Source: a bacterium (GTDB lineage: Bacteria; Patescibacteriota; Microgenomatia; JAUYPR01). Taken from it: a stretch of 45,654 nucleotides of DNA. The notes below the pieces were generated by a model that saw nothing but the letters and a program-made list of their open reading frames with translations, was not told the origin of the DNA and made no database searches. The translations under genes were made by a program, and so were the position numbers. Numbering within the stretch: the stretch's first letter is position 1; each line of letters starts with the position of its first letter. The stretch spans positions 1 through 45,654 of the forward strand of contig JAUYPR010000055.1 of the NCBI GenBank assembly GCA_030695785.1. Direction: 5' to 3'. This document shows, piece by piece, positions 23,577 to 45,654 of the stretch.

Positions 23577-23603
23577 CAGTTCATAAGTTTTTGAGGGAGA
23601 TGT

Positions 23604-24134: not shown

Positions 24135-24141
24135 GGGTACA

Positions 24142-24378: not shown

Positions 24379-24500
24379 GGGATTTGTCCCACTTCGCTGA
24401 AGCTTCGCGGGACACACTTCGCATCAATATACCAAAGATTTACAGTTTACAAACTGTGGCCTGCCACGCGAAGCTCCGAGTGTATACGAGGAGCGAAGTG

Positions 24501-24892: not shown

Positions 24893-24975
24893 GAGATAAA
24901 AAAGAATCCTCTGGACTGTACGTCCAGCTGCATCCTAAGATATAGTATACAAAAGAACGCGGTTTTTGTCAACCG

Positions 24976-25689
24976 ATGGACCAACTCAAAACGTTCATTT
25001 TCGACCTTCTCTTCCCCCGCCGCTGTGTAGGATGTTCTTCCTGGGGAATGGTGCTGTGTGCACATTGCCGCGAGTCGTTTCGAGAAACGACTCGCATCTG
25101 CCCAGCGTGTGAACGTCCGTCGATTGACGGTATGACACATCCGGGGTGCCGCAAGAGCACGGGCATCGACGGCTTGGTTGCGGCAGTTGTTTATCAGGAT
25201 GCAGTGCGCGCCGTGGTGCATGCGATGAAATACAAGTGGGTGACGATGCTCGCCCCAATAGTCAGCCAAGAAATGCTCCGAAGGATGCATGCCCACCCGC
25301 TCGAGAAACTTCTTGTATCAAAAAAAGGCGTCTTGATCCCCATTCCCTTGCACAAGAGCCGAGAACGGGCTCGCGGGTTTAACCAAAGCGAAATCATCGC
25401 ACGCCACCTTGGGCAGCTCCTTGCACTTCAGGTAGAGTCGGATATGCTGACACGCGTCCAAGCAACCCCACCTCAAGTTGCACGCAGTGGAAAGGAACGG
25501 CGGGCTGCGATGCACGGAGCATTTGCTGTTCCGCATCCGGATCGTTGCAAAGGAAAAACGGTTCTTCTCGTGGATGACGTGTGGACCACTGGTTCAACCA
25601 TGCGGGAAGCAGGCCGTGTACTCAAACGATCAGGCGCGTTGGAGGTCATTGGCCTTGTGTTTGCACGGTCAGAAGGCCGACTGGTATAA
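24976..25689 (+). CDS. comFC: ComF-family protein (ComFC-like phosphoribosyltransferase-fold competence protein)
   Basis: N-terminal Cys-rich LLFPRRCVGCSSWGMVLCAHCRESF...CPACE, RGFNQSE, and PRT motif VLLVDDVWTTGSTMREA. Confidence 0.85.
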   Translation: MDQLKTFIFDLLFPRRCVGCSSWGMVLCAHCRESFRETTRICPACERPSIDGMTHPGCRKSTGIDGLVAAVVYQDAVRAVVHAMKYKWVTMLAPIVSQEMLRRMHAHPLEKLLVSKKGVLIPIPLHKSRERARGFNQSEIIARHLGQLLALQVESDMLTRVQATPPQVARSGKERRAAMHGAFAVPHPDRCKGKTVLLVDDVWTTGSTMREAGRVLKRSGALEVIGLVFARSEGRLV

Positions 25690-25698
25690 TATAAATCG

Positions 25699-25791
25699 GG
25701 TGGGTTGGCTGAGTGGTTTAAAGCGGAGGTTTGCTAAACCTCTGGCGCTCTAAAAGGTGCCGCACAGGTTCGAATCCTGTACCCACCGCCA
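25699..25791 (+). tRNA. tRNA-Ser (anticodon GCU), CCA encoded
   Basis: GGTGGGT/ACCCACC acceptor stem, GAGGT-TTGCTAA-ACCTC anticodon arm, 21-nt variable arm, ACAGG-TTCGAAT-CCTGT T arm, then G-CCA. Its TGGTATAAT promoter overlaps the comFC stop codon. Confidence 0.9.
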
Positions 25792-25849
25792 CGTAATAAT
25801 TTTGCAAGACAAAATTAAACGTGGCTGGGAAGTCAGACTCCCCGCAAAA

Positions 25850-25935
25850 GGAGGGTTGGCCGAGTGGTTTATGGCGCTGGTCCTGAAAACCAGTGGGTCT
25901 TAAAGCCCTCAGAGGTTCGAATCCTCTACCCTCCG
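25850..25935 (+). tRNA. tRNA-Ser (anticodon UGA), apparent C at position 33
   Basis: GGAGGGT/ACCCTCC acceptor stem, CTGGT-CCTGAAA-ACCAG anticodon arm, variable arm TGGGTCTTAAAGCCCTC, AGAGG-TTCGAAT-CCTCT T arm, discriminator G. Confidence 0.85.
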
Positions 25936-25937
25936 CC

Positions 25938-31606: not shown

Positions 31607-31659
31607 GGTTTGATTGTAACACTGGAACATACCCGCATAACGTACTACGGTTGACCCAC

Positions 31660-31688
31660 TTGACAAATCCCATTTAATGTGCTAATAT
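31660..31688 (+). promoter_or_regulatory. Promoter of the AAA ATPase gene, leaderless geometry
   Basis: TTGACA (31660-31665), 17-nt spacer, TAATAT (31683-31688), 7 nt, ATG at 31696. It shares CCACTTGACAAAT with the promoter at 35908. Confidence 0.55.
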
Positions 31689-31695
31689 TGGGAAT

Positions 31696-32829
31696 ATGAT
31701 CCCAAGATTAGTTGAAGATTTGGTATTCTCAAAAATCACAACCTCCAAGAAAATCGTCCTCTTGTTCGGAGCGCGGCAGGTTGGAAAAACGACGCTCGTG
31801 CGACGGATGGAAGAACGGCTCAAGGCCAAGGGGAAACGAGTCCAATATTTCAACTGCGACTTCCAAGAAGAGAAGGATGCGATCAATACAACCTCAAAGG
31901 CAGTCCTTGGGCAGCTTGTTTCGGAGGTCGACGCATTACTCATTGACGAAGCACAGCGGCTTGACAATCCCGGGTTGACGCTGAAAAACATCCACACGCT
32001 CTCACCGGATCTTTATCTTCTTGCAACAGGATCATCGAGTTTTGAGCTTAAAAACACACTCAGCGATTCACTCACAGGACGGTACGTGGACTTCACGTTA
32101 TATCCCTTCTCCTTTACAGAAGTCATCCCCAACGAGAAGCCTGATGCGTTGTTGCCGTCGGCATTTGTCTACGGTTTGTACCCGGAAGTTTATCTTGAGA
32201 AAAACCCGTCTGAAAAACAGGCGCTGCTCAATCGGCTCGTTGACAGCTACCTGTTTCGAGATGTCCTCACGTTTCAGCGTGTGCAAAACTCCCAGGCCAT
32301 CAAAGATTTAACACGGGCGCTCGCGTATCAAATTGGATCGGAGGTCAACCCGAACGAATTGGCAAATCGCCTGAAGATTGACCGAAAAACCGTCATCAAT
32401 TACCTTGAGGTTTTAGAGAAATCATTTGTCATTGTCACGTTAACGCCATTTTCAAAAAATCCTCGTCGAGAAATCGGAAAAAATTCTAAGGTTTATTTTG
32501 TCGATCTCGGCGTCAGAAATGCGTTGATCGGAGATTTCAATCCCATGCATCTGCGTGCGGATGCTGGAGCTGTGTGGGAGAACTTTCTTGTTCTTGAGCG
32601 CCTGAAGTCATTTGCCAACCGCAATGAACAGGTCTCCCATTACTTTTGGCGTCATTATTCAGGGGCGGAAGTAGACTACCTTGAAAAAAGGTCGTCCAGA
32701 GAACTTCAGGCGTTCGAATTGAAGGTTGGAAGCGGATCATTACGGAAGGGTGCTCGTTCTTTTACCGACGACTATGGCGTCAAAGTTCAATTAATTAATG
32801 GTGAAAATTATTTGGACTTCATCCGCTGA
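31696..32829 (+). CDS. AAA+ ATPase with a C-terminal DUF4143-like domain
   Basis: Walker A is GARQVGKTTL and Walker B is ALLIDEAQ. The length and C-terminal pattern (YFWRHYSGAEVDYL) are typical of the AAA_14/DUF4143 family. Confidence 0.85.
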   Translation: MIPRLVEDLVFSKITTSKKIVLLFGARQVGKTTLVRRMEERLKAKGKRVQYFNCDFQEEKDAINTTSKAVLGQLVSEVDALLIDEAQRLDNPGLTLKNIHTLSPDLYLLATGSSSFELKNTLSDSLTGRYVDFTLYPFSFTEVIPNEKPDALLPSAFVYGLYPEVYLEKNPSEKQALLNRLVDSYLFRDVLTFQRVQNSQAIKDLTRALAYQIGSEVNPNELANRLKIDRKTVINYLEVLEKSFVIVTLTPFSKNPRREIGKNSKVYFVDLGVRNALIGDFNPMHLRADAGAVWENFLVLERLKSFANRNEQVSHYFWRHYSGAEVDYLEKRSSRELQAFELKVGSGSLRKGARSFTDDYGVKVQLINGENYLDFIR

Positions 32830-32882: not shown

Positions 32883-34160
32883 ATGTCACGTTTTATCATC
32901 TGGTTTTCCCGCGCAAGCGGTGTTCTCTTTGTAACCCTTTTGGGGCTGAGTGTTGCGCAACCAGTCTATGCAGATTTCAAAGTCATCGGAACTTCTCCTG
33001 ATTTAATTGCATGTCCATATGTCGTTATCCCGAACGCTCACTGGCGATGTATGGATAAGGATGAAAATGTTCAGACAAAGATGTCGTTTCGCGTCAGTTC
33101 TTCAGAACCATTGCTTGATAACGTCACATACCTACTACGAATCTCTAAAAATAGCGACCCGAACAACTTTGGTTTTGCGCCTGCTAAAAAGATACCCGAC
33201 AACGAACTCATCTTCGAATGGGATTTCAATGGCATTGGAACAATAAGAACCGATCCTCATTTTATAGCCCAACCAGGAGTCTGGACGCTTGAGCTTTATG
33301 CTCCAGGCAAGCTTGAATATGATTATGGCCGTAGTTTTCCACGCTTTCTTCCAGACCAGAAGAAAAAATTAGAAAATACAACGTTCATTATCTACGAAGG
33401 ACCAAAAAAGCAACCTACCTTTCGCGCAAAAAGGATACGTTATCCGGCCAATACAAAAGAAGTTGAATTTGAAATTCTCAACACCACAAAAAGCGTTCGG
33501 TATGAAGTATGGTGGGATGGAGAGACACCTGGTTTTGGTAAAAGTGGAACGTCTGAGCAGTCAGGTTCTACTCTCAATCTCAAATTGAAATGGAGTGGTC
33601 AGGCGAGAGAACGAGGACAACTAGCCTGTATGGCAATACCAACCTCTGGATTTCTCGTTGGATTAAAATGTGAAGATTTTTCGACCGTCGTTTACTTTCT
33701 CTCAACAGACCCTGGCGATGGAGGAGGACCCTCGGAACCCCTCGGAGACAGAAATGGAGATCCGTTTACTCACGAATTAAAAACCGTCTCTGGAGGCGGT
33801 GTCACTAGACTTATTCGCGAACCGCGTAAATACGAAAGAGTAATCTTCTGTCAAGAAAAGCAAAACGAAGAAAGTGGTGTAGTAATTCACACCGGAATAG
33901 GATGTATTCCTACAACACCTTCTGCATTGCTTGGTTTTCTGCTCCGCTTTGCCATTGGCATTGGGGGCGGGGCGGCTTTGCTTATCATGGCATTTGGGAG
34001 TATTCAAATGATGACGGCGCAAGGCGATCCGGAGAAATTGAATGAAGGCCGGGAGAAGTTTGTGGGCGCGCTTGCTGGACTTTTGTTTATTGTTTTCAGT
34101 ATATTCTTGTTGAATGTGATCGGCGTCCAGATTTTTGCCATTCCGGGGTTCCCAAAATGA
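32883..34160 (+). CDS. Pilin-module fusion 1: large exported beta-rich N-terminal domain plus C-terminal VirB2/TrbC-type T4SS pilin module
   Basis: Signal peptide MSRFIIWFSRASGVLFVTLLGLSVAQPVYA. C-terminus LLRFAIGIGGGAALLIMAFGSIQMMTAQGDPEKLNEGREKFVGALAGLLFIVFSIFLLNVIG is a two-helix pilin hairpin. Confidence 0.7.
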   Translation: MSRFIIWFSRASGVLFVTLLGLSVAQPVYADFKVIGTSPDLIACPYVVIPNAHWRCMDKDENVQTKMSFRVSSSEPLLDNVTYLLRISKNSDPNNFGFAPAKKIPDNELIFEWDFNGIGTIRTDPHFIAQPGVWTLELYAPGKLEYDYGRSFPRFLPDQKKKLENTTFIIYEGPKKQPTFRAKRIRYPANTKEVEFEILNTTKSVRYEVWWDGETPGFGKSGTSEQSGSTLNLKLKWSGQARERGQLACMAIPTSGFLVGLKCEDFSTVVYFLSTDPGDGGGPSEPLGDRNGDPFTHELKTVSGGGVTRLIREPRKYERVIFCQEKQNEESGVVIHTGIGCIPTTPSALLGFLLRFAIGIGGGAALLIMAFGSIQMMTAQGDPEKLNEGREKFVGALAGLLFIVFSIFLLNVIGVQIFAIPGFPK

Positions 34161-34903
34161 AGATCCAACTCTCTTTTTTCCTTACCTCAATACTCTGCTT
34201 TCTTTTCATTGCAACACCGGCTCGAGCAATTGAGATTGAGATAGAGGTGAAAAAGGGTAACCCCAATACTGCCGTTATCTCTGTCTGGGATTTTCGTGGT
34301 TTCTCGCCACGCGTTGGCATGTTTGACAGCTCTAGCCTTGTCAAATGTGTCTATCTTCCAACAACCGAAGCAACAGAAACTTCAAAGGCAACCGTTGAGT
34401 TTACCCTCCCCCAAAGGACATCGACGCAAACATTTGTTAATTTTGCCATTCTCAAAACAAAACAATCACTCTCTGGTGCTTCAAAAACACCCTGTTCAGG
34501 AGATGATGCGCTCATTGAATACCTCGGCGAGACAAAAATGATTGATCTCCCAGAGGGGCAAACCTCTACGCTTGCGCCCTCTTCTTCGTTAAAACCGTCA
34601 TTCTCTTTCTCCCTCCCCAAAGACCCGACCCGATTTGCGGGGATGAAGATTTTGGACCTGTTTAACCCAATCGGAACTGGGGCGGGGTTGCTGCAGATTA
34701 TCTTGGGGCTCGCCTTGGCTGTTTCCTTCCTCTTTTTTGCCTTAGGTGCGGTGCGCTATATGCTCTCGGCCGGAGATGCGAAAAAGGCGGAAGAAGCACG
34801 GAACCATATCACCATGGCAGTCGTGGGACTGGTTATTGTTGTGGTTGCGTTTTTCTTAGTCCAGATTTTGGGGCGAATGTTTGGAACAGGGGTCACGAGA
34901 TGA
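34157..34903 (+). CDS. Pilin-module fusion 2
   Basis: ATGA overlap with the upstream gene. Signal peptide, about 170-aa N-terminal domain, then LAVSFLFFALGAVRYMLSAGDAKKAEEARNHITMAVVGLVIVVVAFFLVQIL. Confidence 0.75.
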   Translation: MKIQLSFFLTSILCFLFIATPARAIEIEIEVKKGNPNTAVISVWDFRGFSPRVGMFDSSSLVKCVYLPTTEATETSKATVEFTLPQRTSTQTFVNFAILKTKQSLSGASKTPCSGDDALIEYLGETKMIDLPEGQTSTLAPSSSLKPSFSFSLPKDPTRFAGMKILDLFNPIGTGAGLLQIILGLALAVSFLFFALGAVRYMLSAGDAKKAEEARNHITMAVVGLVIVVVAFFLVQILGRMFGTGVTR

Positions 34904-35391
34904 GGTTCAAAGTTTTCACTTTTGCGCTGTCGCTTTGCGTCTTGAGTCTTGCGCTTTTCGCTTTCCCATCGGGGGTCTCTGCACAATCCGGACAAAATTG
35001 CAACGAGATTCCTCGTGGAGAAGACCAAGATACGTGTTGGGAGAAACAACGAGCAGAATTCCAACAAAAAACGACCGATCAGTCGACGCCAGGTTTCTCT
35101 TTCAATCTTGGATCGTTTTACCAACCCGTTGCGGGAAAGGTCGCGTTTCAATCGTTTGGTGGTGCGGTTGGGTTTGCGTATCGAGTGATTCTGCTCTTTG
35201 CCGGCATCATCGCGTTTTTCCTGTTGATTCTTGGGGGCGTTCGGTATATCATCAGTGGTGGTGACGCAAAGAAAACTGAAGAAGCGCGCAATATGCTAAC
35301 CATGGCAATCATTGGCTTTGCGTTGGTGGTACTGGCGGCGATGATCTATCCTTTGTTGCAGCGATTTTTGGGGCTGCCGAAACTTTTCTAG
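34900..35391 (+). CDS. Pilin-module protein 3
   Basis: ATGA overlap. Signal peptide, Cys pair CNEIPRGEDQDTC, then IIAFFLLILGGVRYIISGGDAKKTEEARNMLTMAIIGFALVVLAAMI. Confidence 0.8.
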   Translation: MRFKVFTFALSLCVLSLALFAFPSGVSAQSGQNCNEIPRGEDQDTCWEKQRAEFQQKTTDQSTPGFSFNLGSFYQPVAGKVAFQSFGGAVGFAYRVILLFAGIIAFFLLILGGVRYIISGGDAKKTEEARNMLTMAIIGFALVVLAAMIYPLLQRFLGLPKLF

Positions 35392-35408
35392 AAAATTCCA
35401 AGGACCAA

Positions 35409-35903
35409 ATGACAAATTCCAAACAAATTTCAAGATTCAAAATTCAAATCTTGATCCTCCTTGTCTGTTCATGGTTTTTGGTCCTTGGTCCTTCACAGGT
35501 TTCTGCTCAACAACAATGTAGTCAATTTAAACAATTCTCAGAAGAGTGGTACGAGTGCACTGGAGTCAAACTTGATACTCGTGCACCGATATCAGAATTG
35601 GGAACCATCGATAATCCCCTCGTCGGCAAGTACCGCGGGCCAGGAGGAATCAGCAATCTTCTCAACAATGTCGTTTCACTCATTTTCATTATTGCCGGCA
35701 TTTTGGTCTTTTTCTTCCTGCTCTTTGGCGGGATCAAGTGGATTGTCTCTGGCGGAGATGCGAAGAAAACTGAAGAAGCACGGAATATGATTACTGCGGC
35801 GATTGTCGGACTTGCCATTGTGGCATTGGCATGGGCTATCGTAAAAGTTTTGGAACAATTCTTTGGATTGCCCCTGACAGGTGGGGCAATTCCGACGCCC
35901 TAA
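35409..35903 (+). CDS. Pilin-module protein 4
   Basis: Signal peptide, Cys pair CSQFKQFSEEWYEC, then ILVFFFLLFGGIKWIVSGGDAKKTEEARNMITAAIVGLAIVALAWAIVKVLE. Confidence 0.8.
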   Translation: MTNSKQISRFKIQILILLVCSWFLVLGPSQVSAQQQCSQFKQFSEEWYECTGVKLDTRAPISELGTIDNPLVGKYRGPGGISNLLNNVVSLIFIIAGILVFFFLLFGGIKWIVSGGDAKKTEEARNMITAAIVGLAIVALAWAIVKVLEQFFGLPLTGGAIPTP

Positions 35904-35911
35904 TTTGCCAC

Positions 35912-35941
35912 TTGACAAATGTGCTTCAGTCTATCTATAAT
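35912..35941 (+). promoter_or_regulatory. Internal consensus promoter inside the pilin array, leaderless geometry
   Basis: TTGACA (35912-35917), 18-nt spacer, TATAAT (35936-35941), 6 nt, ATG at 35948. Confidence 0.6.
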
Positions 35942-35947
35942 CTTAAT

Positions 35948-36352
35948 ATGATGAAGAAGCTCCTCGCAGGTGCTACGGGTGCAGCCGCATATCTTTTGTG
36001 GGCCGGGCAACATGCAGTTGTGTTTGCACAAACAACAAGTTTAGGGATTAATCGTCCAGCAATCGGCAATAGCCCCATTGGTCCAACTGATCTCAATAGT
36101 GTCATCAACGCACTGGTACAACTCGCATTCATTGTCGCAGTCATCCTTGTCTTCTTCTTCCTTGTCTTCGGAGGCATCAAATGGATCATTTCGGGTGGAG
36201 ATCAAAAGAAAACTGAAGAGGCGCGAAATATGATCACAGCCGCCATTGTTGGTTTAGCGATTGTCGCGCTTGCATATGCTATCGTAAAAGTTCTTGAAGC
36301 ATTCTTCAAAATCCCAATCTTTGGACAGGTTGCTCTCCCAACAACTCAATAA
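35948..36352 (+). CDS. Pilin-module protein 5 (close paralog of protein 4)
   Basis: Signal peptide MMKKLLAGATGAAAYLLWAGQHAVVFA, then ILVFFFLVFGGIKWIISGGDQKKTEEARNMITAAIVGLAIVALAYAIVKVLE. The track start at 35831 lies inside the previous gene. Confidence 0.8.
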   Translation: MMKKLLAGATGAAAYLLWAGQHAVVFAQTTSLGINRPAIGNSPIGPTDLNSVINALVQLAFIVAVILVFFFLVFGGIKWIISGGDQKKTEEARNMITAAIVGLAIVALAYAIVKVLEAFFKIPIFGQVALPTTQ

Positions 36353-36392
36353 TATAATTGACTTCTCGTTTTCTCTCCTGTAGACTTTGACT

Positions 36393-36719
36393 ATGCTTCT
36401 TGCGCAACTTTTTCCTTGGGGCAGTTGTGTCCAAGGCGATGTGGCCACGCTTGCCTGTGGAGGTGTTGTGGTCATTCGCATCCTTCAGCTCGTCGGGTCG
36501 CTGGCGCTTCTTGTCTTTTTCATCATGGCGCTTTTTGCCGGGTTTCAGTTGATGACCTCTGGAGGCGACGCAAAGGCCGTAGAAAAGGCCAGGGGCACGC
36601 TCACGCATGCTGTGATTGGTCTGGTCGCATTAGTTGTCGCGTTCTTGATTCTCCAGCTCATTGATACAGTCGCCTTCAAAGGAACGGGGATTTCCATCCT
36701 CAACTTTAGCCTTCCATGA
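36393..36719 (+). CDS. Pilin-module protein 6 (shortest; closest to a plain VirB2/TrbC-like pilin)
   Basis: MLLAQLFPWGSCVQGDVATLACGG..., then LLVFFIMALFAGFQLMTSGGDAKAVEKARGTLTHAVIGLVALVVAFLILQL. Confidence 0.75.
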   Translation: MLLAQLFPWGSCVQGDVATLACGGVVVIRILQLVGSLALLVFFIMALFAGFQLMTSGGDAKAVEKARGTLTHAVIGLVALVVAFLILQLIDTVAFKGTGISILNFSLP

Positions 36720-37381
36720 ACAAGTGGATCGTCGCTTTTCTTCTCCTTACAGCTTCTGGCTTACTGCTTATAGCTCCCTCAATACTCCTCGCCCAATCCG
36801 ACCCAACTCTTCATGCCTGCACAAAGGATCAGGCGGATGGGAAAGTCTATGACGATGCAGGGTGGAACCAAGATCTGAAATGCAGAATGGGCAAATTTTA
36901 CCGATATCAAAGTTATGATGCTGTTAATGATAAGTATTACTGTATTCTCTCAGAACCTATTCCAGTTGATTGCAGCTCCGCACCCGTGCCGACAGCGGCC
37001 ACTCCCTCTCCTTCCCCATCGTCAACCTCATCTGCAACGCCATCTGCGCTCCCAATAAGCGGCTTGTCGTTCCAAGAAGAAGGGCGATTAAACCTTGCGG
37101 TCAGAAGGCTTACCCCTTCAGGGTTTTCTCTGCCAACCAGCGGGTGTCAGCTTCCAATGTTGAACGCGTATATTGGTGCGGCCGAAAGCGTTGAATGCCC
37201 TGGGGGAAATGCGGTGCAGAACGCAATGTCCAATGCGTCCTTAAAGTTTGCCCAAGCAGTGTTGCCCCCCAACCAATTCCTTGCCTCAAAGCCTCCAGAG
37301 AACCAAAACCTTCTTGAAAGATTCCGTCACTGGCTGTTTCGTACCCTTGTAAGCAAGGCCTTTGGGATCGGTGGCTCTTGA
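36716..37381 (+). CDS. Exported Cys-containing protein with a Pro/Ser-rich linker; last gene of the pilin operon
   Basis: ATGA overlap. Signal peptide MNKWIVAFLLLTASGLLLIAPSILLA. Linker APVPTAATPSPSPSSTSSATPSA. No pilin module. Its last 19 nt are duplicated at 38097. Confidence 0.7.
   Translation: MNKWIVAFLLLTASGLLLIAPSILLAQSDPTLHACTKDQADGKVYDDAGWNQDLKCRMGKFYRYQSYDAVNDKYYCILSEPIPVDCSSAPVPTAATPSPSPSSTSSATPSALPISGLSFQEEGRLNLAVRRLTPSGFSLPTSGCQLPMLNAYIGAAESVECPGGNAVQNAMSNASLKFAQAVLPPNQFLASKPPENQNLLERFRHWLFRTLVSKAFGIGGS
37358..37376 (+). repeat. Left copy of the 19-nt direct repeat flanking the RHH-PIN cassette
   Basis: GCCTTTGGGATCGGTGGCT encodes AFGIGG at the 3' end of 36716-37381. It matches 18 of 19 nt with 38097-38115. 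Confidence 0.75.
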
Positions 37382-37414
37382 TAAACAACAAGCGCTATGC
37401 TATTATTACAGTGT

Positions 37415-37654
37415 ATGAAAATTACACGCAGTACTGAAGTTGTTTCCGTATCTCTCCCCGCCCCGCTTTTACGCAAGCTTGACCAAGAAAGCAAGGAGGA
37501 GGGTCGGTCACGAAGTAATTTCATAAAAAATCTCCTCGTGCAATATCTGGAAAACAAACGATGGGAACACATCTATCGACGAGGCACAGAAACAGCACAA
37601 AAATTTAACCTCACTTCTGAGGACGATCTAGATCGTATCCTCCACAATGCGTAA
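37415..37654 (+). CDS. RHH/CopG-family antitoxin
   Basis: MKITRSTEVVSVSLPAPLLRKLDQESKEEGRSRSNFIKNLLVQYL is a ribbon-helix-helix pattern. TGcTATTAT lies 8 nt upstream of the ATG. Confidence 0.75.
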   Translation: MKITRSTEVVSVSLPAPLLRKLDQESKEEGRSRSNFIKNLLVQYLENKRWEHIYRRGTETAQKFNLTSEDDLDRILHNA

Positions 37655-38066
37655 ATCTCTTCCTTGCCGCGTTGTACTTGATACAAACGTTTTATTATCT
37701 GCGATTCTCTTCGGTGGTTACCCACGAACAATTCTTGAGTCTGCAAAGAAGCGTGATCTTCACCTGGTGACAAGCAAAGCATTACTTCTTGAGGCCGCAA
37801 ACGTCTTGTCAAAAAAATTCGCATGGAGTTCGTCTGATATCCAAGATGTCGTGCAAGGAGTTGATGTCTTTGCTGAAGTTATCGCTACGCATTCAAAACT
37901 CCGAGTGATCAAAAACGACCCGAGCGACAATATGGTACTGGAGTGTGCGCTGGATGGTAGAGCTGAAGTAATTATTTCCGGAGATAAACGCCACGTGCTC
38001 CCACTCAAAAGGTTTCGGAATATTCCCATTCTTTCTCCTGCAACATTTGTCAGAAAATATCTATAA
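37647..38066 (+). CDS. PIN-family toxin
   Basis: VVLDTNVLLSAILFGG, LLLEAANV and VIISGDKRHVLPL. It overlaps the antitoxin gene by 8 nt. Confidence 0.8.
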   Translation: MRKSLPCRVVLDTNVLLSAILFGGYPRTILESAKKRDLHLVTSKALLLEAANVLSKKFAWSSSDIQDVVQGVDVFAEVIATHSKLRVIKNDPSDNMVLECALDGRAEVIISGDKRHVLPLKRFRNIPILSPATFVRKYL

Positions 38067-38096
38067 AATGTTTCCTTTCTCGCCTTTATTGACAGA

Positions 38097-38115
38097 GCCT
38101 TTGGGATTGGTGGCT
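38097..38115 (+). repeat. Right copy of the 19-nt direct repeat
   Basis: GCCTTTGGGATTGGTGGCT is followed directly by TAA, so it reads AFGIGG-stop. Confidence 0.75.
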
Positions 38116-38146
38116 AAACCCCAGCAGATTCTGTTATAATTCACGT

Positions 38147-41100
38147 ATGGCAGTTCCAGAAGGTCTACCAAACGGCAATGGCCCTGAGAATGAACCAATC
38201 TCTCCTCCCAAACCCGAGGCGGGTGGCGAACAGCAGTCATCATCTAAACGAAAAGCTCTTCAAGCAGAAACGTCCGATCAGAATCAAAAAACTAAATCGA
38301 CTAGCCCTGAAATAACTCCCCGACCAACGAAACAATCGAAAGAGAAAAAACCGCATGAAGAAGAATTAAAAAAAGGATTACTCGAAAAACTCCTTCAGCT
38401 CTTCAATATTAAATTGCCTGCTAGTAAAACTGGAATGGCGATTGGTGATTTTCAAGAGGCTCTCACATCAAAATTTGAAGCCAAGGGCATTAAACCTGGA
38501 ACAAAAACCTACGCCGAAGCCTTCATTGATGCGGGGAGGAAAATTCGTTCTCTTGAGAGAAACTCTGAGATTTCACAACAAGAAGCAAATTCAATAAATC
38601 ATGCGCTTGCAAGAGAAGCGTATGAGACTTTTCTTACATTAAGAGAAAGCGGAGGTGTTTCGGTATCAGAAATCGATGATTTAGAAGCTCAACTTGGATT
38701 AATCGAGAAGCCATTGGCGGGTGCTAGTCAACCGCCAACTGACCGTCTCAAACAACCCACGCCTGTAGATTTTGCGACTGATTATATACCTACAAATCTT
38801 GCAGGAAACAGTGACCTTATAGTATTAGCGGATAAGCTTCGTAATATACCTGCAACGGATCTCAGCCCGGGTAGAGTAGTTCTCCTCTATCAGGAGCTAA
38901 AAAATATTATAGACCAGTTGCCAACAAAGTTCAATCCTTCCACGCAATCGAAGGAATATTACGAAAATACCAAAGCAGCCTTTGACTTTCTTGCTAGTCT
39001 CAAGCTACTTACTGAAACACAGGCGGTCAGATATCTTCATTTATCACCCAACCACAAACTCGCATCATACGATAAGGAACTTATTCACAACCTTATCCCC
39101 GAGCTCACCCGCATGGTGGATCAAATTGAAGCCGGTATCCAGGGGCGACAATCACCTTACGGATTATCTGAATTTGAACAGAGAATTATTATTAATGGTC
39201 AAGGTCGTCTTGATGGAGAGCAGATGACAAGGGCAGAGCTATTCGCAAGGTTTTTCGGGGTTGCTAATGTGCTACCCGGTATGGATTTTCGATCTACTCT
39301 TTCCTATGAAGATACGGTTCGTATAAACTCATTTATTGCAACTTTACGATTCGCCACCAAAGATAGTTTTGCTATTGAGGGTCTCTCGAATTCAAATTAC
39401 AAAATGCTCATGGAATACTACGCGACAGAGTATCAGATCCGCGAACTCTTCCACAATGCAAACTATTTAACAAGAGCAAACGGAAAGCCCGAGGATCTTG
39501 CGAAATATCTTAATCCATTCCGTGGTGAATTCCTTGATTTCATTTTGAATAAGAAGCGAGAACAGTTTGTTGGAGTGAGCGATGTGATCAAAATGTTTGA
39601 AACCTCAATGCAAGAGATTTTACATCAAAATGCAGGGAGTTCACCAATGTACACAGAAATGGTGACTGATTACGACGAAGGGAGAGAATCCATCCTCGAA
39701 CATCGTGTCCGAAAAAAACTAGATCAACATCTAAAAATGCGCCTCATTCATGATGCTGACGGACGACCCGTACTTGAACTACCAGATTGGCAAAAAGAAC
39801 AAATTATTGGATTTGCACGCGGTTTTCATATTGTTACACTCCGTTTCGTCGAAATTGTCGCTGAAAACAGACTTCCTGCGGGACGGTTGAGACTCTTAGG
39901 AAGTCTTTATGGACATGAAATTGCACGTATCCTAGACCCGCTTGAACAGTTTATTGAGAAATACCAGGTTGCGAAAAAAGGTCCAGCGGCGATTCTTTCC
40001 TATGACATAAAGCAAAAACATGATAGCTTCTTTGGTTTTTTCCCAACATGGAATCCAAATAAGTTACTCGCAGATTTGGATAAAGTTGCGCCGGGAGATT
40101 CCCAACGAATCATGGATCTCTTGAACTTTATGCGTATCGGCGGTCCGTTTATGTCTGCCTGGAGAGCACATAATATCTCCGAACATATTCCAGATCACCT
40201 CCGAGGTGTTGGCCTGCGCCTCGGACTTTTGAGTCATGATGTATGGAATGAGATGGAAAAAAGCCATCAGAAGAACGAACAGCAACAAAAGATGTCGGAC
40301 AACGAGTGGCACAACGAGTGGGAGAGATTGAAAAAAGATAAAGGACTTGAACACATTCACGATGAGCGTGTCGCACAGCGGAAACGTGATATCTGGAGAG
40401 ATGCAAGTCGCTACCTTCCAAGAAGGGTTGCTTGGACTGATACAGACCCGAATTTTCGTCTCGAGACAATTGCGAAAACGCTCGGACTTTGGCAAGAAGT
40501 TAAAAACAATCGAAATCTATGGCAAGGAAATGACCAGCTAAGACAACACGAAGTTGAAGAATTCCTTCGACAACAAAGTATTATCAACTCGAGTCTGGGG
40601 GGAATAGAGGATAATAATTTACTTCAACAGTTAGAGAATGATCTAGAGATTGTTCAAGAGAAACTTATTCAAGGCTGGGATCACACCGGAAACCGCAAAA
40701 ATGATCAATATAAAGATATTTTTGATCTCCTCGCAAAGGAACCAAATTTTCTTGATGGTGATAAGGCGCGCTGTCAACGAGTACTGGAATTTGCACTAAG
40801 AGTTCGGACACGGTTTGATATTAATACCATCGATAAAAAACTCCAAAAGCTCAATCCCATCCTTATTGGTGCAGATATCTCTCAATCGTTTCTAGAGCAG
40901 GTTCGTGAAGAAATCAAGCAGGATCAGAATGCCGCGAGAAACAAGTATGGAAATAATCCGTTTTTTCAAGAAATTGCTAACATGGACGATGAAGCCGCAA
41001 AAAAGTGTCTTGAAGATGCGACGAAGCATCTGATTGACTTTGCAAAGCAAGAGCGTTCTTCCATCCTTGGTTTTGAAGACATGCCGTTTGATCAATTCCG

Positions 41101-41662
41101 ATTTATTGAAGCCGGAGGGAGTGGATTTATTGCCCGACGTATGAATGATTTCATGCATGCAGCACAAGCTGTCGTGGAATTAGTTAACCTCTTAAATGAT
41201 TTGCCCACATATCATGACGAAAGGCAAATCCTCGGCCAGCTCTATAAAATTAAATCGGGTGTTGAGGGTTACGACTCGACACATGCAGAGAAAGTTATGA
41301 AACAACTTATTACAGGTATCTCCAAGTATTATGCACGAGGAGGATGGTCAGCCGCCCCAGAACCAATTGGTTTTGTTGTCCGACTGTTCGGACGCTCGTC
41401 TGCGGCGCAAAGAAGACAAGGTCCAGAGGCGTTCAATTGGGATGAAACGGGAACTCGAAATTTCCTTACCGCCGCATGGAATATGCATCTTTTAGATAAA
41501 AAAGGGTTCCAGGAACTTTCTCGAGATCTTCATGCTGATAAACGAGCATTATTTGAAAAATACTTTCGAATTTTTGGACCATTAGCTTTTGTCATCCTTC
41601 TTCCTCTGTTTTTTGAGGAGTACCAAAAATATAATCAAAAAGCAGAGGCTTCAGTAAGGTAG
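38147..41662 (+). CDS. Orphan 1171-aa protein: disordered Lys/Glu/Pro-rich N-terminus, long largely helical body, single C-terminal TM (tail-anchor topology)
   Basis: TGtTATAAT lies 6 nt upstream of the ATG. No signal peptide, Walker motif or other catalytic motif was recognised. C-terminal FRIFGPLAFVILLPLFFEEY. Visibly more A+T-rich than the pilin genes. Confidence 0.75.
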   Translation: MAVPEGLPNGNGPENEPISPPKPEAGGEQQSSSKRKALQAETSDQNQKTKSTSPEITPRPTKQSKEKKPHEEELKKGLLEKLLQLFNIKLPASKTGMAIGDFQEALTSKFEAKGIKPGTKTYAEAFIDAGRKIRSLERNSEISQQEANSINHALAREAYETFLTLRESGGVSVSEIDDLEAQLGLIEKPLAGASQPPTDRLKQPTPVDFATDYIPTNLAGNSDLIVLADKLRNIPATDLSPGRVVLLYQELKNIIDQLPTKFNPSTQSKEYYENTKAAFDFLASLKLLTETQAVRYLHLSPNHKLASYDKELIHNLIPELTRMVDQIEAGIQGRQSPYGLSEFEQRIIINGQGRLDGEQMTRAELFARFFGVANVLPGMDFRSTLSYEDTVRINSFIATLRFATKDSFAIEGLSNSNYKMLMEYYATEYQIRELFHNANYLTRANGKPEDLAKYLNPFRGEFLDFILNKKREQFVGVSDVIKMFETSMQEILHQNAGSSPMYTEMVTDYDEGRESILEHRVRKKLDQHLKMRLIHDADGRPVLELPDWQKEQIIGFARGFHIVTLRFVEIVAENRLPAGRLRLLGSLYGHEIARILDPLEQFIEKYQVAKKGPAAILSYDIKQKHDSFFGFFPTWNPNKLLADLDKVAPGDSQRIMDLLNFMRIGGPFMSAWRAHNISEHIPDHLRGVGLRLGLLSHDVWNEMEKSHQKNEQQQKMSDNEWHNEWERLKKDKGLEHIHDERVAQRKRDIWRDASRYLPRRVAWTDTDPNFRLETIAKTLGLWQEVKNNRNLWQGNDQLRQHEVEEFLRQQSIINSSLGGIEDNNLLQQLENDLEIVQEKLIQGWDHTGNRKNDQYKDIFDLLAKEPNFLDGDKARCQRVLEFALRVRTRFDINTIDKKLQKLNPILIGADISQSFLEQVREEIKQDQNAARNKYGNNPFFQEIANMDDEAAKKCLEDATKHLIDFAKQERSSILGFEDMPFDQFRFIEAGGSGFIARRMNDFMHAAQAVVELVNLLNDLPTYHDERQILGQLYKIKSGVEGYDSTHAEKVMKQLITGISKYYARGGWSAAPEPIGFVVRLFGRSSAAQRRQGPEAFNWDETGTRNFLTAAWNMHLLDKKGFQELSRDLHADKRALFEKYFRIFGPLAFVILLPLFFEEYQKYNQKAEASVR

Positions 41663-41680
41663 ATTGAGCTTTTATGTCAA

Positions 41681-43093
41681 TTAGGACTTTTGTTCCGGCG
41701 GTTGAGCTGTTGGAGCTGGTTGCGGTTTATTTCCACTGAAACGGTCCCTCAAATATCCAATTGGTCCTCGCTGTGCCATACCAAGGGCAACGCTCTGCGT
41801 CCATATTGAGAACGGGAATCTGACAGCGGTCGCCATTGGAGCAACGCCAGCCCCGACGCCTGCGCTAATCACCCCGCCATACTTAAACTCTGGGCTCTTG
41901 AAGGCGTCTTTCGTCATCTTCACCACTGCGGGGGTGAGGAACACAAAACCTAATCCAATCAAAGCCGCGACTTCATTTTGCCCATAGCCAGCGCCAATCA
42001 TAGGCGCCACCCACCCTTGTCCGGCATTCGTACCACCAGCCGAGAAGACGGCTTGATTCATAAATGCAGAACTCAAAATAAACATCCCCGCCGCAGTGGG
42101 AAATGCCGCCAGATTCCCGATCATATGCCGAAGCCACCCCCCAAACCCAAGGTTCCCGAGGTTTAAGGGCAACCCACCGAGCATAATCCAAAACGGCGCG
42201 AACACCACCCCAAGGATAATTTGGATGTACGCCATAAGCAACGTGAAGAACAACCTGAACATGACAAACACAAGACCAATGGCAATAACGAGCCACGCAA
42301 TAATGGAAAGCACGCTTCCCCCAAATCCTGCAAGGAATGGTGCCCCACCAAAAATTCCTGTTGCAATCGTATAAATTGCCTGTGCAGGCGCAGACGGCCC
42401 AATGCCGCTTCCCGCCCATAATGTAAACGGCGTTTCAGATTGAAAATCATTCCGGATATGCCCCGCAAAAGTCTCCATTCCAGGAATGCTCTGGAAGATA
42501 TTGAAGAAAAGGAACGACACCACATACATCACGTCAATCAAAAATCCAGCGATGGCAAACGAGAACGTGACCAGCAAAAGCGCAAGAATGATGCGTGGTA
42601 ATGAGTTTTGTATAGTTACCACGGTCCGCGGATCAATCCGGAACCGGAACATCACTAAAAATCCAACCGCGAGAAAGATCATCACGAAGAAAATGTAGGC
42701 AATATTCCGAAAGACCTTCCAAATATGGATGATCTGTTGCAATCCCTGAAAACCTGTGCCTTGCGCGTATGCGCTTGGCACCCCCATTCCATTCAACACA
42801 TCCGCCAAATAGGTTTGCGTTGAGGCGGCTGGATTTGTATACATGGCCGTCATTGCACCACCTAAACCCTGCACAGCCCCAAGTTCCCGCCCATCGGTTG
42901 TCCCAATTGCCATGGTTCCAGCTTTCAACATTAAATACTCTACGCTTGTTGATGACCAGTTCGCGAAATTCACACCATCTTTCGCGCGTTGGCTCTCATA
43001 ATCTTTAATCGGGTCAAAAACCTGCTGCGCACCTACCGGAAACGCGAGGGCGGAGAGGAGGAAGATGGTGATGAGGATGAAAAGTCGGCGCAT
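41681..43093 (-). CDS. VirB6/TrbL-like polytopic membrane protein
   Basis: Signal peptide MRRLFILITIFLLSALAFPVGA, an exported N-terminal segment, then at least 7 hydrophobic helices and a Pro/Gln-rich tail. The call rests on its size, topology and position next to the VirB3/VirB4-like genes. Confidence 0.65.
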   Translation of the reverse strand: MRRLFILITIFLLSALAFPVGAQQVFDPIKDYESQRAKDGVNFANWSSTSVEYLMLKAGTMAIGTTDGRELGAVQGLGGAMTAMYTNPAASTQTYLADVLNGMGVPSAYAQGTGFQGLQQIIHIWKVFRNIAYIFFVMIFLAVGFLVMFRFRIDPRTVVTIQNSLPRIILALLLVTFSFAIAGFLIDVMYVVSFLFFNIFQSIPGMETFAGHIRNDFQSETPFTLWAGSGIGPSAPAQAIYTIATGIFGGAPFLAGFGGSVLSIIAWLVIAIGLVFVMFRLFFTLLMAYIQIILGVVFAPFWIMLGGLPLNLGNLGFGGWLRHMIGNLAAFPTAAGMFILSSAFMNQAVFSAGGTNAGQGWVAPMIGAGYGQNEVAALIGLGFVFLTPAVVKMTKDAFKSPEFKYGGVISAGVGAGVAPMATAVRFPFSIWTQSVALGMAQRGPIGYLRDRFSGNKPQPAPTAQPPEQKS

Positions 43094-43099
43094 AATTTG

Positions 43100-43160
43100 A
43101 TGATAGTGAAACCTGGGAGGAATGTCAAATGTTCACATTGGGGTTAGTAACTGGTAACAT
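43100..43160. promoter_or_regulatory. Compact divergent promoter pair for the VirB6-like gene and the PrgI/VirB4 operon; both have leaderless geometry
   Basis: Minus strand: TTGACA (43128-43123), 17-nt spacer, TATCAT (43105-43100), 6 nt, ATG at 43093. Plus strand: TTCACA (43132-43137), 17-nt spacer, TGgTAACAT (43152-43160), 6 nt, ATG at 43167. Confidence 0.55.
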
Positions 43161-43166
43161 GGATCT

Positions 43167-44411
43167 ATGACCCAACATCCCATTCCGCGCGATATCGCAT
43201 CATTCAAGTTCAAACTCGTCGGCAATATGACAGTCAGCCAATTTGCCATGCTTTCTGGCTGGATCATTGTGGCCTATGCCCTCTATCTCACCCCGCTCCC
43301 CAACCCCATCAAGCTCCCCTTTGTGCTGCTCGCAACTTTTCTTGCATTCGCGTTCCCATTTCTCCCGATTGAAGAACGGCCGCTGCATCATTGGATCCTT
43401 GCATTTCTGAAAGCCGCGTTTTTTACTGAATTGCGCCGCGTGTGGAAAAAGGCGGCCGCTGCCGACGATTTGTTTGCACTGCCTCTAAACCGGCTTGCGC
43501 CGGTCATCGCAAAACAGACAATATCTCCACCTGTATCAACAGAAACACCTCCACCATCAACAGTCACAATGCAGGGAGTTCAAACAACGGTTCAAACCGC
43601 ACCCACGATACCGCCTTCTTTGACACCAACACCTTCTATGACGATTCCTCCGATTCCTCCGCAGCCACAACCGATATTCATACCGAGACCACAGACATCT
43701 CCTCCACCTATCCCAACTGATCGAACCCAAAAAACCGCGCAGGAAATTATCCAAGAGGCGTCACTCACCCACATGGTCAAGACCGGTGACGATCGAAGCG
43801 ATATACTCCACACACAAAACGCGCACCTTGAAAAAATCATCCAAAAACTCGAAACTGACCTCGGAGATGTACGCAATCAGCAACAGCAATCGTTTCAGCA
43901 AAAAACAGCGCTCACGGACACGGTCACGCTTCTCCAGCAGCAATTGGCTGGCGCGATTGGTCAGCGGGAACATTTGAATCGCCAGCTCTATAGTTTGCAG
44001 GAATCCCCCCGGCCTTTGGCTGGAACCGCCGCAACTTCGACTCCACAGCGCGTGGTCATTATGCAGCCGCAACCGTCCATGTCAATGCCAAAACCTGCAG
44101 TGCCATCCACAATGCCCGCCCAACCATCGGGTGTGCTCCCACAACTCACCACCATTCCGAACGCCATCAACGGCATTGTCCGCGGAAAACAAAGCGAGTT
44201 TTTATCCGACGTCATTGTCGTGATTAAAGATCAAGCAGGACTGCCGGCTCGTGCGTTAAAAACCAATCGCCTTGGGCAATTTGTTGTCTCGACGCCGCTC
44301 CCGAACGGCACCTACTTCGTCGAGCTTGAAAAAGAAGGCTATACCTTTGATACAATTGAAGTGCAAGTGACCGGAAGAGTCTTAGGGCCAATCACCATTC
44401 AAGTGCGGTGA
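43167..44411 (+). CDS. PrgI/VirB3-like N-terminal membrane module fused to a Pro-rich linker, a coiled coil and a C-terminal carboxypeptidase-regulatory-like beta-sandwich
   Basis: PIPRDIASFKFKLVGNMTVSQFAMLSGWIIVAYALYL matches the PrgI-family start. Pro-rich PTIPPSLTPTPSMTIPPIPPQPQPIFIPRPQTSPPPIP. C-terminus INGIVRGKQSEFLSDVIVVIKDQAGLPARALKTNRLGQFVVSTPLPNGTYFVELEKEGY. Confidence 0.65.
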   Translation: MTQHPIPRDIASFKFKLVGNMTVSQFAMLSGWIIVAYALYLTPLPNPIKLPFVLLATFLAFAFPFLPIEERPLHHWILAFLKAAFFTELRRVWKKAAAADDLFALPLNRLAPVIAKQTISPPVSTETPPPSTVTMQGVQTTVQTAPTIPPSLTPTPSMTIPPIPPQPQPIFIPRPQTSPPPIPTDRTQKTAQEIIQEASLTHMVKTGDDRSDILHTQNAHLEKIIQKLETDLGDVRNQQQQSFQQKTALTDTVTLLQQQLAGAIGQREHLNRQLYSLQESPRPLAGTAATSTPQRVVIMQPQPSMSMPKPAVPSTMPAQPSGVLPQLTTIPNAINGIVRGKQSEFLSDVIVVIKDQAGLPARALKTNRLGQFVVSTPLPNGTYFVELEKEGYTFDTIEVQVTGRVLGPITIQVR

Positions 44412-44423
44412 GGATATTCCCTT

Positions 44424-45251
44424 ATGAGCACGCCTATTCGCGCCAGCACGCAAGAACATTTGGATATTGATGATGTCCGGGATCATCTCGTCCTCTTAAA
44501 AGACGGAGGTGCGGCCCTCGTTTTACAAACCACGGCCGTCAATTTTGGCTTGCTCTCGGAAACCGAGCAAGATGCCATGATGGTTGCCTTTGCAGCCACG
44601 TTAAATTCCCTCTCATTCCCGATCCAAATCGTCATCCGAAGTAAAAAATATGACATCACCACTTATATTGAGCGCCTGCGGCAAGCGGAACTCCGACAGC
44701 AAAACCCAAAATTCCGGAATCAAATGACACACTACCGCGCGTTTGTGGAATCCACCATCCAAGAAAACAATGTGCTGGACAAGCGATTTTATATCGTCAT
44801 TCCATTTTCGCCCATTGAGCTTGGCCTTGGATCAACCTTTGGGATCTTTAGCAGCCGCAAAATTCCGTATTCAAAAACATACATTCTGGAAAAAGCGAAG
44901 ACCGCACTATTCCCACGCCGCGATCATCTCCTGCGTCAACTCGGTCGCGTTGGGCTCAAAGGAACACAGTTGTCGACTGAACAACTCATTTCCTTGTATC
45001 ATGACATTTACAACCCAGACACGCCGCGCGGGCAACACGTGGGAACGCAAATTGATTCATTCACCGCACCGCTCGTCCAACGATCTGGTGCAGAACCACC
45101 TCCGCCGGTAAAAGAAGAGGTGCCGGTCGGTCAACCAATCATACAGCCGCAACCAACAAAACCCGCCATGCCGCCAACCCCAGACGCAATCCGCCATACC
45201 TTGACCCAGCTTGACTCTGCCATTCAGCGCCTGCGGGGAGGAAACATATGA
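44424..45251 (+). CDS. T4SS-associated protein resembling a free-standing VirB4 N-terminal domain
   Basis: GAGGA Shine-Dalgarno sequence. STQEHLDIDDVRDHLVLLKDGGAALVLQTTAVNFGLLSETEQDAMMVAFAATLNSLSFPIQIVIRSKKYDIT follows the pattern seen at the N-terminus of Gram-positive-type VirB4/TraE ATPases. The C-terminal tail is Pro-rich. Confidence 0.5.
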   Translation: MSTPIRASTQEHLDIDDVRDHLVLLKDGGAALVLQTTAVNFGLLSETEQDAMMVAFAATLNSLSFPIQIVIRSKKYDITTYIERLRQAELRQQNPKFRNQMTHYRAFVESTIQENNVLDKRFYIVIPFSPIELGLGSTFGIFSSRKIPYSKTYILEKAKTALFPRRDHLLRQLGRVGLKGTQLSTEQLISLYHDIYNPDTPRGQHVGTQIDSFTAPLVQRSGAEPPPPVKEEVPVGQPIIQPQPTKPAMPPTPDAIRHTLTQLDSAIQRLRGGNI

Positions 45252-45654
45252 CGCAAACAACAATACTCACTCGCGGCATGTTTGCCGTGCAAGACATCAT
45301 CGCGCCACCGTCCATGGAGGTGGATTATGACCATGTCCAAATTGGCGAGACGTACTTCCGCACCTTGTTTGTGGCCGGCTACCCGCGGTTTGTGAATGCA
45401 AACTGGCTTGCTCCACTCATTAATTTCGACCACACGTTGGAAATTGCCATGTATATCTACCCCACAGAAGCAAGCGGGGTTTTGTCTGATCTTCGGCGCA
45501 AAATCGCGGAAATGGAAGCAACATTGTCAACCGACCTCCAGCGCGGGAAGGTGATTGACCCAACGGTGCAGACCACACTCGGTGATGCGCAAGCGCTGCA
45601 AGAACAACTCGCCAAAGGCGCGGAGCGCTTTTTCCAGTTCGCGCTATACGTGAC
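45248..45654 (+). CDS. virB4: VirB4/TrbE-family T4SS ATPase, N-terminal 135 aa only (runs off the window)
   Basis: The ATG at 45248 overlaps the upstream TGA (ATGA). The frame is open to the window end and is not in the ORF track. IGETYFRTLFVAGYPRFVNANWLAPLINFDHTLEIAMYIYP is a typical VirB4 N-domain pattern. Confidence 0.7.
   Translation, partial: MTQTTILTRGMFAVQDIIAPPSMEVDYDHVQIGETYFRTLFVAGYPRFVNANWLAPLINFDHTLEIAMYIYPTEASGVLSDLRRKIAEMEATLSTDLQRGKVIDPTVQTTLGDAQALQEQLAKGAERFFQFALYV

Follow-up and report, generated by a model that had tools for sequence, protein, structure and literature searches.

A pilin-gene array in a probable chromosomal type IV secretion locus of a Microgenomatia bacterium

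Contig JAUYPR010000055.1, from a bacterium of the patescibacterial class Microgenomatia, was analyzed over its whole length of 45,654 nt (hereafter the window). Toward its right end, seven tightly packed plus-strand genes (g1–g7, 32883–37381), six of which encode pilin modules, are followed at a distance by genes for VirB6-like, PrgI/VirB3, TrsD-like, and VirB4 proteins belonging to a type IV secretion system (T4SS), and the contig end falls inside virB4. The gene map was drawn from an open reading frame (ORF) listing and a Pfam scan, and pilin modules were located by a hidden Markov model (HMM) scan of all six frames. The comparison set consisted of 84 related loci from species-level genomes (labeled L001 and so on).

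The pilin array

The six-gene array of pilin modules that an initial annotation had described without database searches is real and far beyond chance. The gathering score of the Pfam T4SS_pilin family PF18895 is 26.6 bits, and the products of all six plus-strand genes exceed it (27.7–50.0 bits, E 3e-6 to 3e-13): g1 (32883–34160, 425 residues, 27.7 bits), which passes only narrowly, g2 (34157–34903, 248 residues, 38.4 bits), g3 (34900–35391, 163 residues, 35.3 bits), g4 (35409–35903, 164 residues, 50.0 bits), g5 (35948–36352, 134 residues, 42.8 bits), and g6 (36387/36393–36719, ~108 residues, or 110 from the TTG codon, 32.6 bits). The six-frame scan counted six such modules in the window and no more. 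The C-terminal ~95 residues of g1–g6 align as a hydrophobic helix, the segment G-G-[IV]-[KR]-[WY]-I-x-S-G-G-D-A-K-K-x-E-E-A-R-N, and a second hydrophobic helix. The common two-helix module claimed for the array is therefore present in all six genes, but the full motif is intact only in g3–g5 and is degenerate in g1, g2, and g6. In the AlphaFold2 model of g4, helices 81–113 and 118–152 are connected by a four-residue turn at SGGD (pLDDT 70–82), which is the predicted hairpin fold that the initial annotation had expected of these modules.

Signal-peptide-like N-terminal segments are found in g1–g5 and g7, in line with the earlier description of all seven as genes for exported proteins, but g6 has no classical signal peptide. 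The claim that the array is made of fusions, most of them with extra N-terminal domains, does not hold, since domain-sized N-terminal extensions are restricted to g1 (~330 residues, six Cys) and g2 (~150 residues), two of the six. The other pilins, g3–g6 (110–164 residues), are near the usual family size; the 56 complete pilin-module ORFs of the related loci have a median length of 126 residues, nine of them reaching at least 180 residues and the longest 266 residues. The ectodomain of g1 is an orphan. When 5.8 billion protein clusters were searched, only the last ~20% of g1 found homologues, the relatives of g1 (249–508 residues) carry unrelated N-terminal parts, and a sequence search with the ectodomain gave no PDB match. 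NCBI names the g1 protein "pilin". Members of the g1 subfamily have in common a G-C-[IV]-P-T motif, conserved at the junction, and a C-terminal IPGF. In g1, g3, g4, and g6, a Cys-X9-17-Cys loop stands directly before the first pilin helix (g1 residues 323–341, 33849–33905). The Cys loop and the G-C-[IV]-P-T motif could point to a disulfide loop or to a site of processing.

The last gene of the row, g7 (36716–37381, plus strand; ORF listing), encodes an exported protein of 221 residues with six Cys and no pilin module. It matches neither PF18895 nor any other Pfam, NCBIfam, or PDB entry. In position and architecture, g7 is the counterpart of a 226-residue protein in L001, one of the two closest relatives of the window, although the similarity between the two is just E = 0.086.

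The pilins of the window are 20–25% identical when g1 is compared with the others, and g5 shares 60% identity with g4; in L001, the second pilin matches g3 at 65% identity. Against the NCBIfam Mbov_0395 pilin-like model from a Mycoplasma integrative and conjugative element (ICE), g2 scores 32.9 bits, below the cut-off of 40. Both g2 and g4 gave sub-threshold matches of this kind, and the TrsD-like and VirB4 proteins also match the VirB4 of Mycoplasma ICEs. The classical VirB2/TrbC family PF04956 showed no match to the pilins at E ≤ 0.01.

Three ATGA overlaps noted by the initial annotation are present at g1/g2, g2/g3, and g6/g7, and a fourth joins the TrsD-like gene and virB4 at 45248. The initial annotation had joined g1–g7 into a single operon, but a perfect TTGACA-18-TATAAT promoter (35912–35941) ends 6 nt before the start codon of g5. 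The g6 ORF opens at TTG 36387, and a -10-like TAGACT lies 6 nt before ATG 36393, which is the likelier start. Since promoters stand directly before g5 and g6, there seems to be more than one transcription unit, and the "operon" probably consists of several, partly leaderless units. Similar -10-like boxes are located 6–7 nt before the starts of g6, the 1171-residue ORF described below, the VirB6-like gene, and the PrgI fusion gene. Over the window, 14 of 36 genes have a TANNNT box starting 11–14 nt before the start codon and leaving ~6 nt (regions 35912–35947, 36372–36392, 38129–38146, 43094–43128 on the minus strand, 43132–43166, 31660–31695, and others). Genes inside operons carry Shine-Dalgarno-like GGAG or AGGA in place of the box. 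This arrangement of start-site signals suggests that leaderless transcripts are widespread in the organism.

The VirB4, PrgI, and VirB6-like genes and their neighbors

At the end of the contig, genes for a PrgI/VirB3 fusion of 414 residues (43167–44411) and a TrsD/TraC-like protein of 275 residues (44424–45251) and the start of virB4 (45248–45654, 135 codons before the contig end) follow one another on the plus strand. The PrgI domain (PF12666) covers residues 5–92 of the fusion with 32.5 bits, above the cut-off of 27, and contains transmembrane segments at residues 26–44 and 47–70. Beyond PrgI, the fusion has a P/T/Q-rich linker, a coiled coil, and, at its C-terminus, a CarboxypepD_reg-like beta-sandwich (25.3 bits, below the cut-off), and this architecture is also seen in L001, L086, and L088.

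The TrsD-like protein has 3905 homologues with identities of 45–92%, nearly all of which carry PF26593 TraC-like; the window protein itself gave no PF26593 match in the Pfam scan, and its profile found nothing significant in PDB. It aligns to positions 132–279 of the NCBIfam model VirB4_plasma (E 2e-8; unrounded, 2.3e-8) and to TrsD (NF041427, E 4e-4), both below the cut-off. The final ORF aligns to positions 295–412 of the same VirB4 model. Since the two proteins take up successive parts of one VirB4 model, VirB4 is split over two genes, the TrsD-like protein being its predicted free-standing N-terminal domain. Proteins of the TrsD type have been described from pGO1 (PMC12102498). The product of the virB4 fragment shares 78% identity with the N-terminal end of the 596-residue VirB4 of L001, which carries AAA_10, P-loop_TraG, and DUF87, and it also matches the NCBIfam CD1110 VirB4-like model (E 1.5e-11). 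The profile matches and the 78% identity bear out the earlier assignment of a PrgI/VirB3 fusion, a VirB4-N-domain protein, and the start of VirB4.

Immediately upstream of the PrgI fusion and on the minus strand lies the gene for a polytopic membrane protein of 470 residues (41681–43093), assigned as VirB6-like by fold search and synteny. Searched by sequence, the protein matched nothing in Pfam, NCBIfam, or PDB, and a profile search of PDB was also null. Among 46 members of its family, three weakly match TrbL/VirB6 (PF04610; best E 5.4e-4). The AlphaFold2 model reached a pLDDT of 76 and a predicted TM-score (pTM) of 0.67, and the family is found within 10 kb of the PrgI-TrsD-VirB4 triad in 35 of the 84 related loci. 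The protein is likely, but not proven, to be a divergent VirB6-like component. The initial annotation had placed a VirB6-like gene after the pilin operon; such a gene is present, but it does not follow directly and it runs on the opposite strand.

The intervening 4.3 kb hold a toxin-antitoxin pair and a 1171-residue ORF, both of which are missing from the initial gene list. The genes for the RHH (CopG) antitoxin (37397–37654, RHH_5 34.9 bits) and the PIN_3 toxin (37647–38066, 74.2 bits), on the plus strand between the pilin genes and the large ORF, overlap by 8 bp. Since the pair is found in none of the 84 related loci, it is considered a recent insertion into the locus and looks like an addition outside the T4SS proper.

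The 1171-residue protein, here called BIG, is encoded on the plus strand (38147–41662) and was taken from the ORF listing. It lacks a signal peptide and a Walker A motif and has a single C-terminal transmembrane helix (1138–1157). Pfam, NCBIfam, and PDB gave no match, PDB was also null with a profile, and a Pfam scan of 35 family members yielded scattered chance matches only. The family comprises 153 representative clusters of similar length that have two conserved blocks in common, with invariant residues R432, H436, E485, W672, R673, D978, R997, and D1001. Across six genomes (among them the loci L001, L017, L059, L086, and L088), BIG always runs convergent to the VirB6-like gene, and it is a conserved partner of that gene. 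BIG could be an unrecognized T4SS component or an enzyme.

Upstream of the array, the SpoIID enzyme and the AAA ATPase of the initial annotation were confirmed by Pfam. The SpoIID-domain enzyme (29870–31666, minus strand) consists of a signal anchor, a coiled coil, and the SpoIID domain (66.6 bits), and the ATPase (31696–32829, plus strand) matches DUF4143 (130 bits) and AAA_14 (97 bits). A divergently oriented SpoIID gene stands beside the pilin array in every related locus with a visible upstream flank (L003, L009, and L011), and the window enzyme is 45% identical to the L003 copy (L003 1–979). SpoIID is a candidate cell-wall remodeling partner, its role in the T4SS being suggested by this position, and might take the place of the missing VirB1 hydrolase. 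The AAA_14/DUF4143 ATPase occurs in only 4 of the 84 related loci, at varying positions; it probably entered between SpoIID and the array as an unrelated insertion.

Related loci and chromosomal context

The named homologues belong to Gottesman-, Shapiro-, Curtiss-, Beckwith-, and Woesebacteria, which are Patescibacteria of the class Microgenomatia. The gene set recurs: PrgI, TrsD, and VirB4 are encoded side by side as a triad in at least 80 of the 84 related loci, with the PrgI fusion directly upstream of TrsD-VirB4 in 80 and TrsD next to virB4 in 82–84. Nine distinct genomes have arrays of 4–8 pilin genes no more than 10 kb from the triad, and two further loci carry arrays of seven and four pilin genes.

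The closest relatives, L001 and L086, keep the gene order of the window, L001 from the pilins on and L086 from a truncated BIG homologue. The order runs from the pilins through the ~225-residue exported protein, BIG, and the VirB6-like protein (opposite strand) to the PrgI fusion, TrsD, and VirB4 (596–607 residues). Beyond the point where the window stops, it continues with an M23 peptidase (887–918 residues), a ~145-residue ORF, dciA, dnaN, a Holliday-junction-type nuclease (Pfam Endonuc_Holl), and dnaA. The Peptidase_M23 gene directly follows virB4 (L001 12496–15252; L086 3309–5972). In 52–53 of the 84 loci, dnaN and dnaA are convergent and located 0–7 kb downstream of virB4, and the window probably ends ~5–7 kb short of the replication origin. 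The description of the locus as minimal, with VirB2/3/4/6 only, has to be given up, since the relatives add the M23 peptidase, SpoIID, and the ~900–1200-residue tail-anchored protein.

The 45.6-kb window encodes no type IV coupling protein (T4CP), no relaxase, and none of VirB7–11, in agreement with the initial annotation, which had found VirD4, a relaxase, and VirB7–11 missing. The annotated neighborhoods of L001, L003, L086, L087, and L088 also contain no relaxase or T4CP, and no relaxase/VirD4 module appears downstream in the relatives. The locus is a vertically inherited, origin-proximal chromosomal system and not an ICE.

The rest of the window is made up of housekeeping genes, including rpoD, dnaG, six tRNA genes, a copper ATPase gene, comFC, and a racemase gene, and the GC content of the locus is unremarkable relative to the neighboring sequence. 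A ComFC-like competence protein with a double zinc ribbon and a phosphoribosyltransferase domain is encoded ~7 kb upstream of the locus (24976–25689), amid four serine and two arginine tRNA genes (21960–25937). Between 4000 and 7000, the GC content falls to 0.36–0.40, compared with ~0.5 elsewhere, and the stretch holds small ORFs without a Pfam match. It adjoins a cluster of an ArsR/YHS regulator and a copper P-type ATPase and may have been horizontally acquired.

Comparison with known systems and interpretation

T4SSs with pilin arrays have already been published as standard equipment of Patescibacteria (candidate phyla radiation, CPR), and the present locus is a typical case of them, not a new kind. 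A survey by Quinonero-Coronel et al. 2025 described a distinct Patescibacteria VirB4 clade related to the mating-pair formation type MPF-FATA (PMC12102498). It found TrsD, PrgI/VirB3, VirB6, and VirB2-like proteins to be widespread in Patescibacteria and listed 441 arrays of 2–11 pilin genes, especially in Microgenomatia and Saccharimonadia. Pilin paralogues were on average 25% and at most 54% identical, relaxases were almost absent, and the system lay close to dnaA/dnaN (PMC12102498). The window shares with the survey VirB4, TrsD, PrgI/VirB3, a likely VirB6, arrays of VirB2-like proteins with low paralogue identity, the lack of a relaxase, and the proximity to dnaA/dnaN. The corresponding identities here are 20–25% between g1 and the other pilins and 60% between g4 and g5. 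For Microgenomatia, the survey rated VirB6 as "scarce" and the linkage of VirB3 to virB4 as poor (PMC12102498), whereas among the related loci examined here the VirB6-like family accompanies the triad in 35 of 84 and 80 of 84 have the PrgI fusion adjacent. That survey makes no mention of SpoIID or the BIG family (PMC12102498).

The best-studied relative is the T4SS of Candidatus Southlakia epibionticum ML1 (Saccharibacteria, SEML1_0006–0019), which resembles Gram-positive conjugation systems and is indispensable to epibiotic growth (Wang et al. 2023, PMC10633639). A predicted pilin series of this species is also essential, and its cluster has no relaxase or coupling protein (PMC10633639). Both loci are chromosomal monoderm-type T4SSs with VirB3/PrgI, VirB4, a TrsD-like protein, VirB6 (a likely one here), six divergent VirB2-like pilins, and wall hydrolases beside virB4, and neither cluster includes a relaxase or coupling protein. 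They differ in class (Microgenomatia here, Saccharimonadia there), in the likely VirB6 of the present locus, which is too divergent for HMM detection, and in the extra conserved 1171-residue tail-anchored protein and the two pilins with large ectodomains here.

Compared with the MPF-FATA systems (pCF10 Prg/Pcf, pGO1 Trs) and the Mycoplasma ICEs, the locus has in common PrgI (VirB3), TrsD, a CD1110/Mbov_0397-type VirB4, a large wall hydrolase after virB4, and no outer-membrane core. Unlike in those systems, no relaxase, T4CP, VirB8-like protein, or PrgB-type adhesin was recognizable here. Multiple pilins are found only here when the comparison is made with pCF10/pGO1-type systems, and the window system is chromosomal, vertically inherited, and not mobile. 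The sub-threshold likeness to Mycoplasma ICE proteins hints that VirB2-like pilins may already have been present in MPF-FATA-type systems and may not have been borrowed from diderm systems. With the MPF-T systems (Agrobacterium VirB, R388 Trw), the locus shares the VirB2-type hairpin pilin, the VirB3-VirB4 membrane ATPase module, and a likely VirB6 platform, which is the best structural match of the 470-residue protein, while it differs from them in having no VirB5 or VirB7–11, no significant VirB2 or VirB6 sequence similarity, a monoderm envelope, and a split VirB4.

We consider that the locus encodes a chromosomal, origin-proximal T4SS of the Patescibacteria clade in Microgenomatia, likely used for host contact and macromolecule exchange, and put the probability of this reading at about 85%. 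The machine is derived from a monoderm (MPF-FATA) conjugation apparatus that has lost its relaxase and coupling protein. The initial annotation had proposed a T4SS-like, non-conjugative machine for host contact or uptake; the derivation from a T4SS stands and such a role is favored in the literature, but the novelty of the locus was overrated (PMC10633639, PMC12102498, PMC12857230). In known systems, VirB3 anchors VirB4, VirB4 powers the extraction and assembly of pilins, and VirB6 serves as the assembly platform (PMC9259494, PMC12857230).

The analysis shows what the parts are, that they and their order are conserved, and that the setting is chromosomal, whereas the formation of a pilus, the direction of transport, and the substrate are matters of inference. 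The six divergent VirB2-like pilins would be exported and reside in the membrane as helical hairpins, with the charged SGGDAKKxEEARN loop facing the cytoplasm. The split VirB4, composed of the TrsD-like N-domain protein and an ATPase of ~600 residues, would be tethered by the PrgI/VirB3 fusion, extract the pilins, and polymerize them, with the VirB6-like protein as platform, into a short filament or a conduit crossing the wall. The peptidoglycan may be opened by SpoIID and, in the relatives, by the M23 peptidase encoded right after virB4. With their large, non-conserved, Cys-rich ectodomains, g1 and g2 would be minor, surface-decorating subunits. The filament or channel would most likely serve contact and macromolecule exchange with a host cell rather than conjugation.

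Several observations weigh against this interpretation. A pilus has not yet been seen in any Patescibacterium (PMC12857230). In hhalign comparisons with Agrobacterium fabrum proteins, the pilin-module profile reached only E 0.021 with a probability of 2% against VirB2, and the VirB6-like profile gave no hit against VirB6. The pilin profile finds no pilin in PDB, and the fold search with g4 was non-specific, returning helical hairpins, the best pilin among them being the Aeropyrum conjugation pilus (8dfu, E = 4). For the VirB6-like model, the top PDB matches in Foldseek are to R388 TrwI/VirB6 (7o3v_G, probability 0.97; 8rt9_F, probability 0.96), and they are weak (E 0.06–0.1, TM-score 0.36–0.44). 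The window virB4 stops at 135 codons, and its ATPase domain is read from orthologues alone. The absence of a T4CP and a relaxase covers one contig, and either could sit elsewhere in the genome.

A possible narrower function, which we hold only tentatively, is that of an import device for DNA or further macromolecules, like the Helicobacter ComB T4SS, that would supply nucleotides of host or environmental origin to a bacterium unable to make them. Import has been proposed in the literature (PMC12102498, concluding remarks; PMC11665869), where a pilus-like conduit for uptake or signaling has been the subject of speculation. The lack of a relaxase and T4CP in the window and the closest relatives and the comFC-like gene at 24976–25689 also fit this function. 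However, the direction of transport is not readable from sequence. ComB systems are not known to have multi-pilin arrays, which counts against the comparison. In S. epibionticum, moreover, comEC is dispensable whereas the T4SS is essential (PMC10633639, PMC12857230), and therefore the essential role of the T4SS is not exerted via the known uptake channel. Import is in any case a sub-case of the host-contact and exchange machine rather than a true alternative to it.

Somewhat more doubtful is the proposal that this Microgenomatia T4SS includes lineage-specific parts that published surveys did not recognize. Besides the divergent VirB6, BIG as a tail-anchored cytoplasmic protein, and the SpoIID lytic enzyme next to the array, these would comprise the pilins with large, rapidly replaced, disulfide-rich ectodomains (g1 and g2), which could decorate the filament as host-specific adhesive subunits.

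It is quite unlikely that the PF18895 proteins form no pilus and are instead stationary two-helix membrane parts, either of a channel or as anchors of ectodomains. Monoderm T4SSs generally have no pili (PMC12857230), g1 and g2 have the look of hairpin-anchored ectodomains, solved pilins gave no significant match by structure or sequence, and no VirB5-like tip protein was recognizable. Nevertheless, all six proteins pass the Pfam T4SS_pilin cut-off, and a hairpin with a short charged loop is the architecture of VirB2/TraA. Most members, at 95–145 residues, have no ectodomain to display, and tandem divergent paralogues beside VirB4/VirB6 are the pilin-gene pattern of Bartonella and Anaplasma (PMC12102498).

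We reject the reading of the locus as the transfer module of an ICE or plasmid, with relaxase and coupling protein just past the contig end, because of the dnaA/dnaN synteny in the relatives, which brings it close to refuted: the VirB4, TrsD, PrgI, and VirB6 families do stem from Gram-positive conjugation systems (PMC12102498), the contig stops inside virB4, and a toxin-antitoxin pair lies within the locus, but virB4 is followed in the closest two relatives by the M23 peptidase, a small ORF, and dciA-dnaN-dnaA, the triad stands beside dnaN/dnaA in 52–53 of the 84 species-level genomes, the flanks are housekeeping genes with unremarkable GC content, and a tblastn search of 72,556 plasmids with the pilin module gave no match.

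The patescibacterial T4SS is an important problem. The only cultivated species tested cannot do without it, and it is near-universal in a huge uncultivated radiation. The window is a clean Microgenomatia example of the published pattern and holds no new principle. Its added value is that it points to a divergent VirB6 where HMM surveys found this protein scarce in Microgenomatia, and that it offers BIG, SpoIID, and the M23 peptidase as conserved accessory genes for future models of the machine. It also reveals that some pilin paralogues bear large non-homologous ectodomains; if these are indeed host-specific adhesive subunits, their swapping would help determine the host range of these epibionts.

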